From IMG/VR virus record IMGVR_UViG_3300025103_000122, positions 1 through 27,654 of that record: a stretch of DNA of 27,654 nt. One strand, written 5' to 3'. The position numbers were made by a program, and so were the translations under genes. The notes under the pieces were generated by a model. It did no database searches and was not told the DNA's origin. It saw only the letters and a list, made by a program, of their open reading frames with translations. Origin of the DNA: a virus. Its lineage: Duplodnaviria > Caudoviricetes. How positions within the stretch are numbered: position 1 is the first letter of the stretch; the number at the start of each line of letters is the position of its first letter. This document shows positions 4,221 to 13,367 of the stretch, one piece after another.

Positions 4221-4586
4221 TTATCTGCAAAGGATGTTGTAAGATTCTTGTGATTCAAATCTATCGAAAACAGGAATCACATCAGGACATGGATACCCAA
4301 GCATTTCAGTAATGTGATCAGCGATGTAGTTATCTACTTCAGCATACACACCGTTGTGCATAGCACCGATCAAGCCTTCAGGTTTGCGTAGTGGTTTTAA
4401 AATTGCTCTGTATCCACCTTTAACCTGTTGCTTTTCAATAATAAATTCAGGAGCTGACTCATCAGCTTCTTGTACGAAATAGCCACTAGGAATCTCTACA
4501 CCAATAATAGTGATCTCATCTTTACCTTTTAAAAGGTCTTTGCTACCGTACTTGCTAGTTAATAATTTTGCTCTGTTAAATGACAT
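4221..4586 (-). CDS. Hypothetical protein, first gene of the leftward operon
   Basis: The TTGGAG SD at 4598-4593 favours ATG 4586 (MSFNRAK) over the track start at 4598. Confidence 0.75.
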   Translation of the reverse strand: MSFNRAKLLTSKYGSKDLLKGKDEITIIGVEIPSGYFVQEADESAPEFIIEKQQVKGGYRAILKPLRKPEGLIGAMHNGVYAEVDNYIADHITEMLGYPCPDVIPVFDRFESQESYNILCR

Positions 4587-4640
4587 TTTCATCTCCAAGT
4601 TGTTAGTTTAAAAGTGCCGATTTGTTATCCTCGACACAGA

Positions 4641-4666
4641 TAAGTATATACTAATATTGGTATATA
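4641..4666. promoter_or_regulatory. Operator-like palindrome copy 2 with leftward -10 (TATACT)
   Basis: TATATACTAATATTGGTATATA (4645-4666) is a 22-bp palindrome with one mismatched pair, upstream of the leftward operon. Confidence 0.75.
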
Positions 4667-4728
4667 GGTAGATTATTTTACATTTATTTTATTTCCTTTA
4701 GGAATAGGGGTTGTAGAGGTATTTTTTT

Positions 4729-4759
4729 ATCCCTGACTATAGATAGGGATTATTTTTTT
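4729..4759 (+). terminator. Terminator-like hairpin upstream of the ncRNA candidate
   Basis: ATCCCT-N10-AGGGAT followed by TATTTTTTT. Confidence 0.45.
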
Positions 4760-4832
4760 GCAAATTTTTATAAAATGATCAGAAAACCTGTGTATTATTA
4801 CTGGTCTTGGTTTAGCGTTTTTTGAGTAGATC

Positions 4833-4873
4833 AGAAAGCGAAAACCCCTAGAGTGAATGAAGCTCTAAGGGTT
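4833..4873 (-). terminator. Intrinsic terminator of the antisense RNA
   Basis: Minus strand CCCUUAGAG-loop-CUCUAGGGG followed by UUUUCGCUUUCU. Confidence 0.65.
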
Positions 4874-4905
4874 GTCTAAAACTGGTGTTTGCCCCACCGT
4901 TCTGT
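4833..4905 (-). ncRNA. Candidate ~70-nt antisense RNA
   Basis: Bounded by the minus-strand promoter at 4938-4911 and the intrinsic terminator at 4873-4833. Confidence 0.62.
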
Positions 4906-4910
4906 GAAAG

Positions 4911-4938
4911 ATTATACCATCTTAGGACTTCTTGGCAA
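4911..4938 (-). promoter_or_regulatory. Sigma70-type promoter (leftward)
   Basis: TTGCCA (4938-4933), 16-nt spacer, TATAAT (4916-4911) with extended -10 TGgTATAAT. Confidence 0.7.
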
Positions 4939-5375
4939 ATATCAGGATGCGAATCGTGATATGTCTGACATTTTATGTTTCACTCACACGACAAAAAAGA
5001 GATTCAGTTATGCATCCCAAGAAGCTGTTGATTGATGTTAGATTAAGAAGGTTTATACTGGTAACCACCTTGAACCGATAAAGAAAATCTAGCGTAGAGT
5101 TGCAGAAGGCTGAGTACGGATCATACCGTAGCAATGAACTCTAACTTGTATAGCTATGATGGTTACAAGCATTGGATGATACTGCGATGAGCTGTAAACC
5201 GATGATAATCTCTAACTGCTTTAATTAGTGGTTAGGGATTGATTTGCTTGAACTTCCCCAACTCCAAACTGTTCCCGATAAGTTAAAAAGCAAAAGCTCT
5301 TGATCTTAAAAAGGGATTTATCCCTCTGCTCTACTGAAGTCACTCGCTGAAAGCGAAATATAAGAGTAAACCAAC

Positions 5376-5404
5376 TTACCACTTTGTACTAATATTGATA
5401 TAAT
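5376..5404 (+). promoter_or_regulatory. Rightward sigma70 promoter overlapped by operator copy 3
   Basis: TTACCA-17-TATAAT with TGa extension. TACTAATATTGATATA (5387-5402) overlaps the spacer and -10. Confidence 0.75.
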
Positions 5405-5431
5405 TATATTATTCTATTACTTTTTTTTATT

Positions 5432-5650
5432 ATGTCTAAGATAATTTATTACGAATCAATTCCTAGAGAGCTTGAAAGGCTTGAGATCACACAAAAAGAA
5501 GCAGCCAAAATGTTAGGTTTATCACTTAGTGGTTTTACATCAAGAATAGCATCAAACAAACCTATAACTCATTGGATGATCTATGGGTTGTCCAATTATT
5601 TAGAGCCAACTAAACCTAGAAAACGTATTAAGAATGCCAAAAAAAATTGA
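5432..5650 (+). CDS. Cro/XRE-like helix-turn-helix regulator
   Basis: LERLEITQKEAAKMLGLSLSGFTSRI HTH signature; first gene of the rightward operon. Confidence 0.85.
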   Translation: MSKIIYYESIPRELERLEITQKEAAKMLGLSLSGFTSRIASNKPITHWMIYGLSNYLEPTKPRKRIKNAKKN

Positions 5651-5819
5651 TCACTCCGAAAGAAAAAAACTAATCCAATCAATCAGAGATATTATTGGAA
5701 CGATTGAAGCCATAGAAGATCATGCTATAAAAGAAAACTTATGCCACCAAATTATAGGTTTATGTGATCAGATGAAATTTACTTTAATTATGGATATGCA
5801 AAAAGCTGATGAACTATGA
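5634..5819 (+). CDS. Hypothetical helical protein
   Basis: 61-aa ORF filling the space between the HTH and VRR-NUC genes. Confidence 0.65.
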   Translation: MPKKIDHSERKKLIQSIRDIIGTIEAIEDHAIKENLCHQIIGLCDQMKFTLIMDMQKADEL

Positions 5820-7757: not shown

Positions 7758-9037
7758 AGGCTGAGATAGAATTACCTCCGAAGCTCGTACCAGTATTTGA
7801 AGGTGAAGCTAGGTATCGTATAGCCTATGGAGGTCGGGGTAGCGGGAAAACACGCTCGTTTGCGCTGATGACAGCAGTTAAAGGTTATCAATGGGGTATG
7901 GAAGGTCTGAAAGGTCAAATACTATGTGGTCGTGAGTTTATGAACTCTCTTAACGATTCTTCATTAGAGGAGATCAAGTCAGCTATTGCATCAGTACCGT
8001 GGTTAGCTGACTATTACGAATGCGGCGAGAAATACATTCGCAGCAGAGATGGCAACATAACCTATACATTCGCAGGACTTCGCAGATCACTAGAGTCAAT
8101 TAAGTCTAAAGCAAGAATATTGTTAGCTTTCGTAGATGAAGCTGAACAGGTATCAGGCAAGGCTTGGCAGGTATTGTTACCTAGCGTTAGGGAGGTCAAT
8201 AGTGAAGTATGGATCACATACAACCCTGAATCAAAATACAGCGCAACACACGAAAGATTCAGAGCTAATCCACCCAAAGATGCTAAGATTGTCCAAATGA
8301 ATTACACAGATAACCCATGGTTTCCTGATGTGCTAGAACAAACTAGACTAGAAGATAAAGAGAAACGACCTGATCAGTATGAACACATATGGCTCGGAGG
8401 TTTCCAAATTTTCTCGGAAGGTAGTTACTATGCTAGTGAAATGAGAAGGGCAAGAGAAGAAGATCGCATAACTAAAGTTAGATATGATCGTGGTAAAGGT
8501 GTTGTTGTTGCATTCGATTTAGGAGTGGGCGATTCAACTGCGCTATGGTTTGCACAATTTATAGGAACTGAAGTACATCTAATAGACTACTATGAAGCAT
8601 CAGGGGTTGGTTTAGATCATTATGTGAAGGTGTTACAAGATAAAGGCTACATCTATGATCAATACATATTCCCACATGACATCAGAGTAAGAGAGCTTGG
8701 ATCAGGCAAAAGTAGACTAGAAACATTACAAGGTATGGGTATTCACGCTGACAAAACAGAGATTTGTCCACAGTTATTGATTGAGGATGGCATACAAAAA
8801 GTAAGAGAGATGTTAGACAAATGCTTCTTTGATGAAGAAAAGTGTGAACGTGGCATAGATTGTTTGTTAAACTATAGCAAAAAATGGGATGACTCAGGAG
8901 CAACATGGAGGATGCGACCTGATCACAATTGGGCATCACATGGGGCAGACAGTTTTCGTTACCTCGCTGTAGGGTATCAACCTTACAATGAATCATGGGA
9001 TAAACCAATTAGGAGAAATCTACAAGGAGTAGTATGA
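7754..9037 (+). CDS. terL: Terminase large subunit (PBSX/Terminase_3-type ATPase plus RNase H-like nuclease)
   Basis: YGGRGSGKT Walker A, FVDEAE Walker B, TYNP coupling motif, FDLGVGD and SHGADSFRY nuclease motifs; GTG start. Confidence 0.97.
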   Translation: MKAEIELPPKLVPVFEGEARYRIAYGGRGSGKTRSFALMTAVKGYQWGMEGLKGQILCGREFMNSLNDSSLEEIKSAIASVPWLADYYECGEKYIRSRDGNITYTFAGLRRSLESIKSKARILLAFVDEAEQVSGKAWQVLLPSVREVNSEVWITYNPESKYSATHERFRANPPKDAKIVQMNYTDNPWFPDVLEQTRLEDKEKRPDQYEHIWLGGFQIFSEGSYYASEMRRAREEDRITKVRYDRGKGVVVAFDLGVGDSTALWFAQFIGTEVHLIDYYEASGVGLDHYVKVLQDKGYIYDQYIFPHDIRVRELGSGKSRLETLQGMGIHADKTEICPQLLIEDGIQKVREMLDKCFFDEEKCERGIDCLLNYSKKWDDSGATWRMRPDHNWASHGADSFRYLAVGYQPYNESWDKPIRRNLQGVV

Positions 9038-12000
9038 GTTTCTTTGAAAATTTATGGACAGTAATTAAGCCTGAAATAACAGGATTATTAGGTACAGAGC
9101 AATCAAGGCAAGATAAAGTCACAGGATTACTTATTGATAAACCATTTGAATTTGGTAAAAACATAGGTCTTTATGATGACAAGATAAAAGCTCCTGATCT
9201 TATAAATACTACAAACCCAAACAATACAGTTAAGCAAAACGCTATTGCAAGTATGAATGATAGTGTTGCTAACATGGCGCAAGACTCAGAAATATTTAGA
9301 AAAAACCTACCAGCAAGTATGTTTGAGATTGGTGAGTTTGGTATTGATCTAGCAATGAATCCAATCAAATACGGTAAAAAAGCACTTAGTTTAGGAAGTG
9401 GTTTGATTTACAATGCACTCCCTGATCATGCACCTTTAAAAAGATTCGCAGATTGGTCAGATAAATTAATAGGTTACGAGGATCAAACAAAAGCAGATTC
9501 AGAAATGGCATCAATGGTGGTTGATTCAACAATAGAGTTTTTTGAAACACCAGGTGCATTAAGAAAGGCAATGCTAGAAAACCCAGCTGATGTATTGGCT
9601 ATGCTAATGGGTGGTAGTTCCATATTCAAAAAATTGGTGGCAGAAAAACCTCAAGAAGTTTTATTAATGAAAAATGCTATCGAGAGAATAGGACACAAAG
9701 AAAGCCTATTTAAAAGAATAGGAGCAATTCCTGTTGGTCTATCAATGAAAGATGTGAGCGTTATATCAGGTAAAGATGTTGTAGAGTCGTTAAAGAAGAT
9801 GGGTACTGATGCATCGGAGGATGCAGGTAAGTACGCTGAAACTGGAGGATTTGTACCACATACTTTAAAAGAAATTGAAAATGAAAATTTTACAAAACAA
9901 ACAGTTGGTATAAATGAATTGATTTCAGGCGATGCATTTCTTAAAGACTATATTGAATCAAACCCAAGCATAAGAGATTTCGATAAAGATGCAACTATGC
10001 CTATTGTTGTTGACTCGAAAGGAGCTGTAAGAGATGGTTACAATAGAATTAACCAAGCTCTTAAAAATGGTGAAACTGAAATTGAAATATTGAAAGGATC
10101 AAACACAGAACTAAGCAAAGTGGGTGGTACAGACTTAGCAACGCAAAGACAACTAGCTAATGTAGATGCATCGGGTTTTTATTCAAAAGCTGAACAAGTA
10201 ATACTAGATCAAATGCCAAAAGATTTACCACAAAATCAATTGCGTGGTTGGTTTGAAAAAAGACGTGTATCAAAGACTGAGTTAGAAGATTTAGGCATAC
10301 TTGCCTTGGTTGATAATATGGAGATAGGTGAGAAAGTAACAAAAGAAGGGTTACTACAACATATTGCTGATCAAAATCTAACATTCTCAAATACAACTTT
10401 AGATGACAATGCAAGTAGAAATATAGACCTGTATGATGAAGATATACAAGCTCGACAAGATTTTGAAATACCTGATGCTGGTGTAGACTTCATGAATAGA
10501 TACAATGATGGCGATGTAAATTGGGATCATATCTTAGCGAGTGCTGATGAGCCTGACGATTGGTTAAATATATCAGGTAACGAATGGAGACTGTCACCTG
10601 ATAGTTCAGACAGAGCTACTAACTATGGTCAAGATATATTTGATGATGAAATTGGATCGTCAGTAAACGTAAACCCTAGTAGTGATGGTGAAATAGCTAG
10701 AATAAGGGGAGGGCAAACGTATCATTACCCTTTTAACAATAAAACTAAGAAAGATTACCCTGATGAAGAAGATGGTAGTATAAACAAGAACTACATGGAT
10801 TTTCGATCTTTTCATGATGATGACAATCTAAAGTTTACTAAGTATATGCACTTCATAAACCCTGAAAGGTATCCTAAGACAAAATCTATGGAACTTAAAA
10901 TACTATATCAAGATTATAATCAAAGAAAAAAACTAGATGAAGTATATCTTTCAGATCGAGAGAGGGAAACATATCTACCTCGCTCTCACGGTCAATTAGA
11001 TACTCAAGAAAATTATAAAAACAAGATTGCAATGCTAGAAGCTAGTATTGAGGATGATATCCGTAATGATAAGATGGAATGGGATATTAAGATGTTGCGA
11101 GAAGCAGCTTATTTACACAACCCATGGGATATGGAAGGTGAAGATAGATTGAAAATGGATATGGTAGAAGCTCAAGAAATGATGGGTAGAGATAGGTATC
11201 TTGAATCACCTGAGTTTGAAATAGATGTAGAAGTAGGTGGAGAAGAATATCAAATATATGGTAATGAGGACATTGGTTACGTAGTATCAACACCTAACGA
11301 TGGATTAGAACATCGTGATCGTGCGCTTCAGGATTTATGGGATTTACCTACTGTAGAATCAGCAATTAGAAATCACGCAAGGGATGAGGGTTATATTGAT
11401 GAGTGGTATGATGGTGCTAATAATGAAGGTTCTTCTACAAAATGGGAAAATTACACTTTAAATAGACATCATAGAGATGCACCACAAGAAAATTACAAAG
11501 AAGAATTAATTATATTAAGTCCTGACAAAGAGCAACTGCGTGGTGGTTATCAGTTTGAAAGTGGAGTGCATTACGGTGGACACAAAGGTTTATTTGCACA
11601 TTTAAGAAAATCTGATAGACGAGAATTAGGTACAAACAGTAATGATGTGTATTTTATTGAAGAAGCGCAATCAGACTTTCAACAATCAAGAAGGGAATTA
11701 GGTGCGACAAAAGCAGAAACAGACGATTTAAAGTATCAAAACCGTATGGAAAGCTCTGCTACAGGTGATATGCTAACTGCTTGGAACGCTTTAGATTATG
11801 GTAAAAAGCGTTTAGATGGTGAGAGATCAATAGCATCCCCAACAAGCGAAACCATTGGTGGTGACTTAGTATGGAAGAAGTTAGTTAAAACATCAGAACA
11901 AAAAGCACTTTATAAACAAGCGATGTTGGCTCAAACAGATCAATATCAACTATCTAATTTTCAATCTACTTCAGGTGAACAAAAAAAGAAAGCGTTAGAA

Positions 12001-12624
12001 CAAGTTAAAAGTTGGAATGATAATTGGCATTTAAATACTCGCAATCCTGATTCTGAGAGTTGGGCAGGTTTAAGTTTTGATGAATATGAGGAACTAGGTC
12101 AATATTTGAGTGAGCATCAAAACGAATTACAAAAAACAGGTCGTAAGTTAGATGACCACTCACACACTAGCAGAACACCAATACAAGGAGATCGTTGGTA
12201 TAAAACAGTTCTAAACTATGCAATTATGAAGGCTGTAGAAGAAGGTAAAAGCACAATATCTTGGGCAAACTCAGACCAAATATTAGATCAATGGAATCCA
12301 GGTAGAGATACAATTTACACTAAGAAAATTAAATTCAAAGAAAGCTATGTTAACACTTACGATAGGAAGCTGAAAAAAGCAGCTGAAAAATATGCTAAAG
12401 ATTATGATGGTGAATTTGAAATTATAAAAATTGATCTTGGTGATGGTAACCATAGTGAAAACTTTTCAATTAGAATTACTCCTGAGATGATAGATAAATT
12501 GATGGAGGAGTTTCCAGCTAATACAGAAACAGGTTTTGCTAGACCTACACATGGTAAACTACAGCAAATACCTTCAGGCTTACTTAAAACGGATGTAACA
12601 GAACAACAGGGGTTATTAGTATGA
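9034..12624 (+). CDS. Large acidic multidomain protein, probably virion-internal/injected, with a ParB/Srx-like segment
   Basis: 1196 aa; PIVVDSKGAVRDGYNR; GFYSKAE; HYGG...HLRKSDR...YFIEEAQSD. The function is inferred. Confidence 0.7.
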   Translation: MSFFENLWTVIKPEITGLLGTEQSRQDKVTGLLIDKPFEFGKNIGLYDDKIKAPDLINTTNPNNTVKQNAIASMNDSVANMAQDSEIFRKNLPASMFEIGEFGIDLAMNPIKYGKKALSLGSGLIYNALPDHAPLKRFADWSDKLIGYEDQTKADSEMASMVVDSTIEFFETPGALRKAMLENPADVLAMLMGGSSIFKKLVAEKPQEVLLMKNAIERIGHKESLFKRIGAIPVGLSMKDVSVISGKDVVESLKKMGTDASEDAGKYAETGGFVPHTLKEIENENFTKQTVGINELISGDAFLKDYIESNPSIRDFDKDATMPIVVDSKGAVRDGYNRINQALKNGETEIEILKGSNTELSKVGGTDLATQRQLANVDASGFYSKAEQVILDQMPKDLPQNQLRGWFEKRRVSKTELEDLGILALVDNMEIGEKVTKEGLLQHIADQNLTFSNTTLDDNASRNIDLYDEDIQARQDFEIPDAGVDFMNRYNDGDVNWDHILASADEPDDWLNISGNEWRLSPDSSDRATNYGQDIFDDEIGSSVNVNPSSDGEIARIRGGQTYHYPFNNKTKKDYPDEEDGSINKNYMDFRSFHDDDNLKFTKYMHFINPERYPKTKSMELKILYQDYNQRKKLDEVYLSDRERETYLPRSHGQLDTQENYKNKIAMLEASIEDDIRNDKMEWDIKMLREAAYLHNPWDMEGEDRLKMDMVEAQEMMGRDRYLESPEFEIDVEVGGEEYQIYGNEDIGYVVSTPNDGLEHRDRALQDLWDLPTVESAIRNHARDEGYIDEWYDGANNEGSSTKWENYTLNRHHRDAPQENYKEELIILSPDKEQLRGGYQFESGVHYGGHKGLFAHLRKSDRRELGTNSNDVYFIEEAQSDFQQSRRELGATKAETDDLKYQNRMESSATGDMLTAWNALDYGKKRLDGERSIASPTSETIGGDLVWKKLVKTSEQKALYKQAMLAQTDQYQLSNFQSTSGEQKKKALEQVKSWNDNWHLNTRNPDSESWAGLSFDEYEELGQYLSEHQNELQKTGRKLDDHSHTSRTPIQGDRWYKTVLNYAIMKAVEEGKSTISWANSDQILDQWNPGRDTIYTKKIKFKESYVNTYDRKLKKAAEKYAKDYDGEFEIIKIDLGDGNHSENFSIRITPEMIDKLMEEFPANTETGFARPTHGKLQQIPSGLLKTDVTEQQGLLV

Positions 12625-13367
12625 CAAAAGAAGAATTTTTAAAAAAAGCATTAGGTTCTCAATACTCAGAAAAAGAAGCAGAAAAAGGACTACTTGATCT
12701 TGATGCATTAAGACGAACAGCAAAAAACAATTTAGGCTCTCAATTTACTGAGTCAGAATTTAATACGATGATGGGTGTTGAAAAACCAATGGGTATTATG
12801 GATTTAAACGAAGTAGAACTAAATAAGCTGCGAAGAATAAAAGAACAAATGGGTGGACAAGTTACTGAAAAAGAAGCTATGGCTATGATTCGACCAACAG
12901 ATGCATATGGTGAACCAATACCTGAATTAGATGTTGCTGATTTAAGAAGGCAATTTTCAAGTATATTAAGCTCTATTACACCACAAGAGCAAGAAAACGT
13001 ACTCAAGCATTGGCAAATGTCAGATGATAATGGCAAAGTTGAATTTATGAAATGGATCGTAGACAAACCTGAGAGAGCAACTGGTTATGGCATACAAGAT
13101 GAAGTCTTATTACCTAAAGAAGCAAACTTAGGACTTGGAGGAAGTCAGACACAAACAGCAGGTACAAATAACACATATTATGATGACGTATTAGGCATAT
13201 ATTTACCAATGGGTTATCAACGAATGGGTGGCACAGGTGATGAAAGATTTCGTCAAGGTTCAGCAGGATGGGGATTTGACTCTTATCCTCATTCAGCACC
13301 TAGGAACTATTATGGAGCGAAAATGAGAGATGCTGATGAAAGATATAGACCATTGGTACTAGGTTAA
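12621..13367 (+). CDS. Hypothetical protein with three internal G(S/G)Qx(S/T)ExE repeats
   Basis: 248-aa ORF with ATGA coupling to the upstream gene. Confidence 0.8.
   Translation: MTKEEFLKKALGSQYSEKEAEKGLLDLDALRRTAKNNLGSQFTESEFNTMMGVEKPMGIMDLNEVELNKLRRIKEQMGGQVTEKEAMAMIRPTDAYGEPIPELDVADLRRQFSSILSSITPQEQENVLKHWQMSDDNGKVEFMKWIVDKPERATGYGIQDEVLLPKEANLGLGGSQTQTAGTNNTYYDDVLGIYLPMGYQRMGGTGDERFRQGSAGWGFDSYPHSAPRNYYGAKMRDADERYRPLVLG

Follow-up and report, generated by a model that had tools for sequence, protein, structure and literature searches.

A conserved element with a predicted structured RNA and antisense partner in the replication slot of marine P22-like phages: a probable RNA-primed origin

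The DNA analysed here, called the window throughout, comprises an entire virus record (27,654 nt; 73% complete) with the layout of a P22-like marine podovirus. Its leftward arm carries an SSB gene and a conserved 223-aa gene, whose product is taken by its position as a Sak-like annealing protein. After a gap, the rightward genes follow in the order HTH, VRR nuclease, HNH/YbcO, NinB, terminase and virion genes. Two genes between the terminase and the virion genes (9034-13367; 1196 and 248 aa) have no family match; their slot varies among relatives, and LPD23/DUF7178 domains occur in one copy. The gap itself, 4599-5431, holds no credible gene. Its longest ORF has at most 53 aa, all six frames are interrupted by stops of all three kinds, and the copies of relatives differ by frame-breaking indels, which together rule out a hidden or recoded ORF. 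A preliminary description of this DNA had found no repressor, initiator, helicase or primase ORF between the two arms, and this holds in the window as well as in near-complete relatives. The GC skew turns near 4500, at the same place as the switch in gene direction, and is therefore uninformative as an origin marker.

Table 1. Features predicted at the locus (window coordinates; colons join the two sides of a helix)
Feature	Position	Strand	Remarks
Predicted leftward promoter	4643-4664	-	-10 box 4643-4648, palindromic spacer 4649-4664; spacer repeated at 5387-5402
Terminator-like hairpin in optional AT-rich block	4729-4750	+	missing from many relatives; outside core
Predicted -10 box of long-RNA promoter	4793-4798	+	TATTAT; start predicted near 4805
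Predicted long structured RNA (RNA II-like)	4805-5290	+	covarying G-U-rich helices
Long-range helix of long-RNA 5' end	4805-4810:5018-5023	+	column pair 4807:5020, five events
Predicted antisense RNA (RNA I-like)	4839-4904	-	66 nt, two hairpins
Predicted antisense promoter	4911-4938	-	TTGCCA-16 nt-TATAAT with TG; scores 11/12 in window
Covarying helices	4945-4951:5011-5017, 4953-4958:4987-4992, 5036-5042:5088-5094, 5095-5099:5139-5143	+	tree-counted double changes
Covarying helices	5115-5119:5126-5130, 5145-5149:5165-5169, 5207-5215:5232-5240	+	tree-counted double changes
Pseudoknot	5002-5008:5109-5115	+	crosses other helices
Pseudoknot, loop-loop	5120-5125:5155-5160	+	crosses other helices
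A-run and TTTA-loop hairpin	5308-5325	+	five-A run 5308-5312; covarying Watson-Crick stem
GAA-triloop hairpin	5344-5356	+	DNA-type mini-hairpin, covarying stem
Predicted HTH-operon promoter	5376-5404	+	-10 TATAAT 5399-5404, conserved
Cro/XRE-like HTH gene	5432-5650	+	72 aa; 3' of element in carriers; homolog without element in L205
ORF2, helical-hairpin protein	5634-5819	+	61 aa; C-D-Q-x-K invariant

The gap is largely filled by a conserved element of about 560 nt (about 4805-5360). In relatives found via a neighbouring protein the noncoding DNA is 66-86% identical, and one further copy is near-identical. DNA-pattern scans found the element at 65 loci in viral records and 120 in metagenomes; four metagenome contigs of 36-40 kb bear it. 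A family profile matched 330 of the 415 loci examined; these 330 are redundant and contain 103 distinct full-length copies from marine phages. Searches of reference collections did not place it in a known family. Rfam gave no match at the gathering score and, with E values up to 10 admitted, just three chance matches (E 0.6-5.9); the Rfam PAGEV model matched none of four records, and the element fits none of the covariance models ROOL, GOLLD, ARRPOF, GEBRO and PAGEV. A DNA similarity search of annotated phages yielded two short weak matches, and a plasmid collection lacking the MRB reference plasmids yielded none. The search of species genomes for a host likewise returned no DNA-pattern match to the element. 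The single match in a MAG, a 7.7-kb contig assigned to Parvibaculum (L128), has the element and the HTH gene; this contig itself looks phage-derived, so the link is doubtful and Parvibaculum was not counted as host.

The region 4780-5430 folds more strongly on the + strand (z = -5.2) than on the - strand (z = -2.4). For comparative analysis we used an alignment of 40 non-redundant copies, each below 95% identity to the others (pairwise 48-95%). RNAalifold predicted 67 pairs from it, 40 of which show double changes. Tree-based counting found at least two independent double changes in 13 of the 53 conserved helices, two pseudoknots among them, compared with 0/26 and 0/27 helices under false pairing rules used as a control. 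G-U cells outnumber A-C cells in four core helices by 76/0, 47/0, 77/1 and 49/0, and this excess indicates a + strand RNA. In 25 of the 40 copies the duplex formed by the 5' end of the long RNA has an energy of -4 kcal/mol or lower; the remainder include anchoring failures. In relatives the -10 box of the long-RNA promoter reads TATCAT or TATGAT, in some with TTGACC 17 nt upstream. RNA-library contigs of relatives cover about 4817-5217; in five runs they start at 4817-4832, and one contig spans 4610-5217. Because flanking genes are covered too, these contigs, which may be DNA and do not resolve strand or ends, give a weak hint of transcription at the element.

A terminator-like hairpin at 5207-5240 is followed by a U tract in 29/40 copies, and 4998-5004 competes with 5232-5240 for pairing to 5207-5213. 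The invariance of these competing helices, together with the hairpin, would suit an antisense-controlled attenuator or life-cycle switch, in which folding of an RNA leader sets read-through into the HTH-nin-terminase operon. The RNA would then stand in for cI, not for O and P, and replication would start elsewhere. The carriers lack cI as well as O and P, which also fits such a switch. For reasons given below, we nevertheless regard it as unlikely.

The predicted antisense RNA lies over the 5' part of the long RNA. It begins with a 5' hairpin bearing a 7-nt loop, followed by a terminator hairpin with a variable loop and a U run. In all 40 aligned relatives such a two-hairpin RNA with terminator is predicted (63-75 nt, median 66 nt). 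The -10 box of its promoter is invariant (40/40), and the -35 box agrees at four or more of six positions in 31/40. In every one of the 40 copies the antisense strand folds more stably than its complement, which could in part reflect G+U bias. For the hairpin 4845-4871, covariation is strongest when pairs are scored by the - strand rule (22 events), and the loops of the antisense RNA differ between relatives. Thus both RNAs of the preliminary description, a structured candidate of ~570 nt and a short antisense RNA over its 5' part, were borne out: the former as a conserved, folded and covarying element, the latter as a predicted two-hairpin RNA with promoter and terminator. Short antisense regulators such as lambda OOP and P22 sar are common in temperate phages, and their frequency lends some credit to the attenuator. 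The specific analogy with OOP drawn earlier fails here, as no cII or O gene lies beneath the antisense RNA and it hence has no such target.

A length of about 500 nt, pseudoknots and a phage location also recall large ornate RNAs, since GOLLD and ROOL occur in prophages according to PMC5737381. That the element is a free-standing RNA of this kind with a role unrelated to replication is, to our judgement, highly improbable. The long RNA has no conserved terminator, it comes with a dedicated antisense unit and it keeps strictly to the replication slot; no Rfam family matched, and the RNA-library contigs weakly suggest the same in showing no sign of very high abundance.

At its 3' end the element changes character. 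The TTTA hairpin is present in 58/64 and the GAA-triloop hairpin in 55/64 copies (a count that omits one of the 65 rows and includes one duplicate of the window), and the A-run precedes the TTTA hairpin in 53/65. As a control, 28 kb of upstream element contained four GAA-triloop and no TTTA hairpins, and the window has no further hairpin of either type. The stems of both hairpins covary with hardly any wobble. A TTTA loop is stable in DNA. According to PMC13037366, GNA mini-hairpins reach a far higher stability as DNA than as RNA and are found at the G4 origin and in RSF1010 ssiA as CCGAAGG; the CCGAAGG variant of the GAA hairpin occurs in 12 of the 64 copies. From hairpins of the DNA type we infer that the + strand is single-stranded at times, comparable to the strand that is displaced in the ColE1 loop (PMC5043065). 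The A-run and the TTTA hairpin may therefore be regarded as a candidate RNA-to-DNA switch region, and the GAA-triloop hairpin as a candidate single-strand initiation signal. In L009, L079, L081-L083, L069, L114 and L321, the GAA hairpin is replaced or supplemented by other 3' cassettes, which contain TTCA-loop hairpins and motifs of the GAGCGAAGCG type. A motif similar to these GAGCGAAGCG-type motifs, GCGAAGCG, is found in the F-G intergenic region of phiX174.

The flanks are less uniform than the core. Flanking operators and AT-rich DNA had been proposed, and both apply to some copies only. The palindromic spacers of the two flanking promoters are operator-like in the window's clade, but just 29 of 58 operator pairs (4649-4664/5387-5402) score above the cross-clade mean, so that a pair common to both promoters was rejected as a general feature of the family. 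The AT-rich block at about 4690-4780 of the window is missing in many relatives. The leftward promoter motif (window 4641-4664) recurs further along the left arm in several relatives (L005:2516-2539, L009:3289-3312, L016:2505-2528). Downstream of the element, the HTH and ORF2 proteins measure 52-95 aa among relatives. L205 has the HTH gene and an ORF2-like gene without the element, so their link to the RNA is not obligatory. Homology of ORF2 to Rop found no sequence support: 33 members gave no Pfam Rop match, neither the PDB nor Foldseek provided a match, and hhalign against ColE1 Rop returned a probability of 0.9%. The fold search VIA had its best Z, 6.5, with unrelated helices; for such a simple fold these searches are uninformative. 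A 297-aa gene with a PAPS-reductase domain lies between the HTH gene and ORF2 in two loci (L038:2653-3546, L039:432-1325). These flanking data bear on the attenuator. The HTH gene, the first of the operon concerned, carries a conserved -10 box of its own, and in L205 the HTH and ORF2 genes remain in place without the RNA. Moreover, an attenuator leaves the DNA-type 3' hairpins and the missing replication genes unexplained.

How far such genes are missing was assessed in four carrier records that are 93-100% complete, one of them with terminal repeats. For G001, G002 and G004, the PHROGs scan covered 123 proteins and the Pfam scan 127, of which 11 were from the window; most of the virion genes that resemble the window's were omitted. 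Neither scan found a family of initiator, loader, helicase, primase, polymerase, integrase or cI. The frameshift-rich G003 was covered by six-frame family searches and tblastn only. Six-frame searches of G001-G004 and the window found DnaB, an O-like initiator and an integrase in none of the five records, and HTH_36 gave two weak matches, both within the small terminase gene. A dif-like site was absent from the four genomes and the window. No iterons were found at the locus, and as an O-like initiator and a helicase loader are also absent, it lacks the marks of a lambdoid O/P origin. The VBR1 replicon, considered as a possible relative, depends on iterons and two required proteins and was dismissed as unrelated. 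The search of full genomes for replication genes suggested by the preliminary description has thus returned near-complete carriers without recognisable ones. The late region of G001, G002 and G004 has clusters of 2OG-Fe(II) oxygenase genes, three to four in each, downstream of the tail-fibre genes.

The carriers also contain numerous small ORFs without a family match. G001, G002 and G004 each have a small winged-helix HTH_39 gene in the left arm, upstream of the Sak-like gene (L126:19411-19644, L123:12550-12936, L120:8433-8696); the window has a gene at 1576-2040 at that place. Because of these unannotated ORFs and the HTH_39 protein, an unrecognised initiator is possible. The locus might also be an origin in which the RNA is not the primer, either because an R-loop or transcription only opens the DNA so that host PriA/DnaB can load or because a small phage protein acts there as initiator. 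This reading shares all evidence from the replication slot with RNA priming. In carriers the element is followed by the HTH and ORF2 genes, which are candidates along with the HTH_39 protein, hairpins of the ssDNA type suit loading of primase or primosome, and even in the MRB plasmids discussed below the action of RNA II is uncharacterised in PMC3035462. We give it a low probability, as the HTH and ORF2 proteins are only 52-95 aa long and exist without the element, iterons were not found, and an antisense layout like that of ColE1 and MRB is most simply explained as primer control.

Relatives show what can take the place of the element. It is borne by 116 of the 119 loci with homologs of both the left arm and the nin arm. 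The element-less loci L045, L047-L051, L221, L225 and L226 have O-like and/or P-like genes; the more distant of them (L045, L047-L049, L221, L225, L226) carry genes of the O/P or O/DnaB type. In L051, cI, cro and an O-like gene stand in place of the element, with a downstream 106-aa gene lacking a family match. The replication proteins of element-less loci had no match in the 330 carrier loci or the four genomes, the sole matches of this search coming from a methylase query. A third arrangement is found in L205 (overlapping L206), whose early region is seen whole and contains neither the element nor O/P genes. This sister phage, with TerL 70% and capsid 71% identical and no initiator gene, has nine same-strand DnaA boxes, by the standard consensus, in 213 nt of an ORF-free gap (L205:2505-2717, genome G006). 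Carrier loci have at most two such boxes per 500 nt (330 loci). The cluster heads the early region, not immediately upstream of the HTH gene, and is likely a phage origin mimicking oriC.

On a TerL tree of 30 rows, carriers fall together with L050 and L051 in a clade supported by 97/96, which L205 adjoins. The tree requires no more than one gain of the element (support 51/14), and the either/or pattern therefore counts as about one evolutionary event, not many. With this weight attached, the mutual exclusivity that the preliminary description had suggested looking for was found, relatives having the element or another origin system. Conservation, covariation, promoters and terminator as predicted, gene content and the alternative modules are all computed from these comparisons. 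Because the structured element occupies the slot of the O/P-like genes of sister phages, the locus is likely an origin. Of the two functions considered earlier, an RNA-primed origin or an RNA switch, the comparative evidence thus favours the former and leaves the switch as the lesser rival.

Among known replicons, the MRB plasmids of Vibrionaceae (pB1067) come closest. According to PMC3035462, they have no Rep gene, a unit of about 500 bp, variable loops and an antisense RNA with its own promoter and terminator, the latter two being predicted here. MRB RNA I is a 68-nt transcript with two stem-loops, and its start lies 104 nt within RNA II, which measures at least 465 nt; the corresponding values of the phage element, 66 nt, about 99 nt and about 485 nt, represent a nearly equal geometry. 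As to shared sequence, which in MRB plasmids would concern a 110-bp core, neither PAGEV nor the plasmid collection, outside which the reference MRB plasmids fall, gave a match, and MRB is a plasmid replicon whereas the element resides in a tailed phage. ColE1/pMB1 shares a folded RNA of similar length, an antisense RNA over its 5' part, the absence of an initiator protein and a 3' A-run, but its RNA I is about 110 nt long with three hairpins (PMC5043065), compared with 63-75 nt and two hairpins here. ColE1 had been the model first put forward, with the caveat that sequence identity to RNAII is lacking. The layout of the RNA pair stands, the two-hairpin MRB RNA I is the better model, and indeed neither the Rfam search nor the family HMM, which had no match in ColE1, revealed homology to RNA I or RNA II. 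A G-tract/C-tract pair as in ColE1 was not identified, nor was Rop.

The position of the element, between recombination arm and nin genes, is that of the lambdoid cI-cro-O-P block, as in L047 and L051, with the difference that carriers lack cI, O and P. RNA-based origins are not a new idea for phages, since they have been published for the cluster A mycobacteriophage prophages Alma, LadyBird and RedRock, in which a non-coding RNA region replaces the RepA gene (PMC7157519). Those origins are adjacent to parABS and function in the prophage state, the genome maps label a DNA polymerase I, and the passages of PMC7157519 on them describe no antisense pair. Carriers have no match to parABS, polymerase or integrase, and for this reason the unit may serve all replication. 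In the open literature, our search for RNA-primed origins in such phages found only the MRB, ColE1 and mycobacteriophage precedents named here.

By analogy with the plasmids, we consider the locus to be probably an RNA-primed origin of the MRB/ColE1 kind, free of a protein initiator and with antisense copy control. Host RNA polymerase would transcribe the pseudoknotted RNA from about 4805. In its proper fold, in which the 5' end pairs with 5018-5023, the RNA would stay hybridised to the template near the A-run at 5308-5312, and host RNase H and Pol I would then make the primer. The displaced + strand could fold the TTTA and GAA mini-hairpins and thereby load host primosome or primase. Kissing contacts of the 66-nt antisense RNA with the 5' loops would refold the long RNA and stop initiation, perhaps by favouring the terminator-like hairpin 5207-5240. 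Priming, the parts of RNase H and Pol I and antisense control are all modelled on ColE1 and MRB. The outcome would be copy control and exclusion of phages sharing the same loops, and the arrangement suggests a plasmid-like carrier state. A further and more tentative proposition, which we hold as possible without favouring it, is that a widespread group of marine tailed phages gave up initiator, loader, repressor and integrase, and that one RNA pair of a new family runs both replication and the decision between lysis and carrier state. With close kin relying on O/P proteins or a host-DnaA origin, three types of origin would then swap within one lineage.

RNA-primed replication without a Rep protein is known from ColE1, MRB plasmids and, in the prophage state, some mycobacteriophages. 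The RNA family described here and its position in the lambdoid O/P slot are absent from the literature we found, and would, if the interpretation is correct, add a third unrelated RNA family for this mode of replication, in lambdoid-like phages of the ocean. A fragment of 600 bp would then be expected to act as a replicon with loop-specific incompatibility. The large alignment with covarying pseudoknots is useful for studies of pre-primer RNA folding, and the element provides a marker to find more such phages. An RNA-primed origin would explain how DNA is copied in phages without an annotated replication gene.
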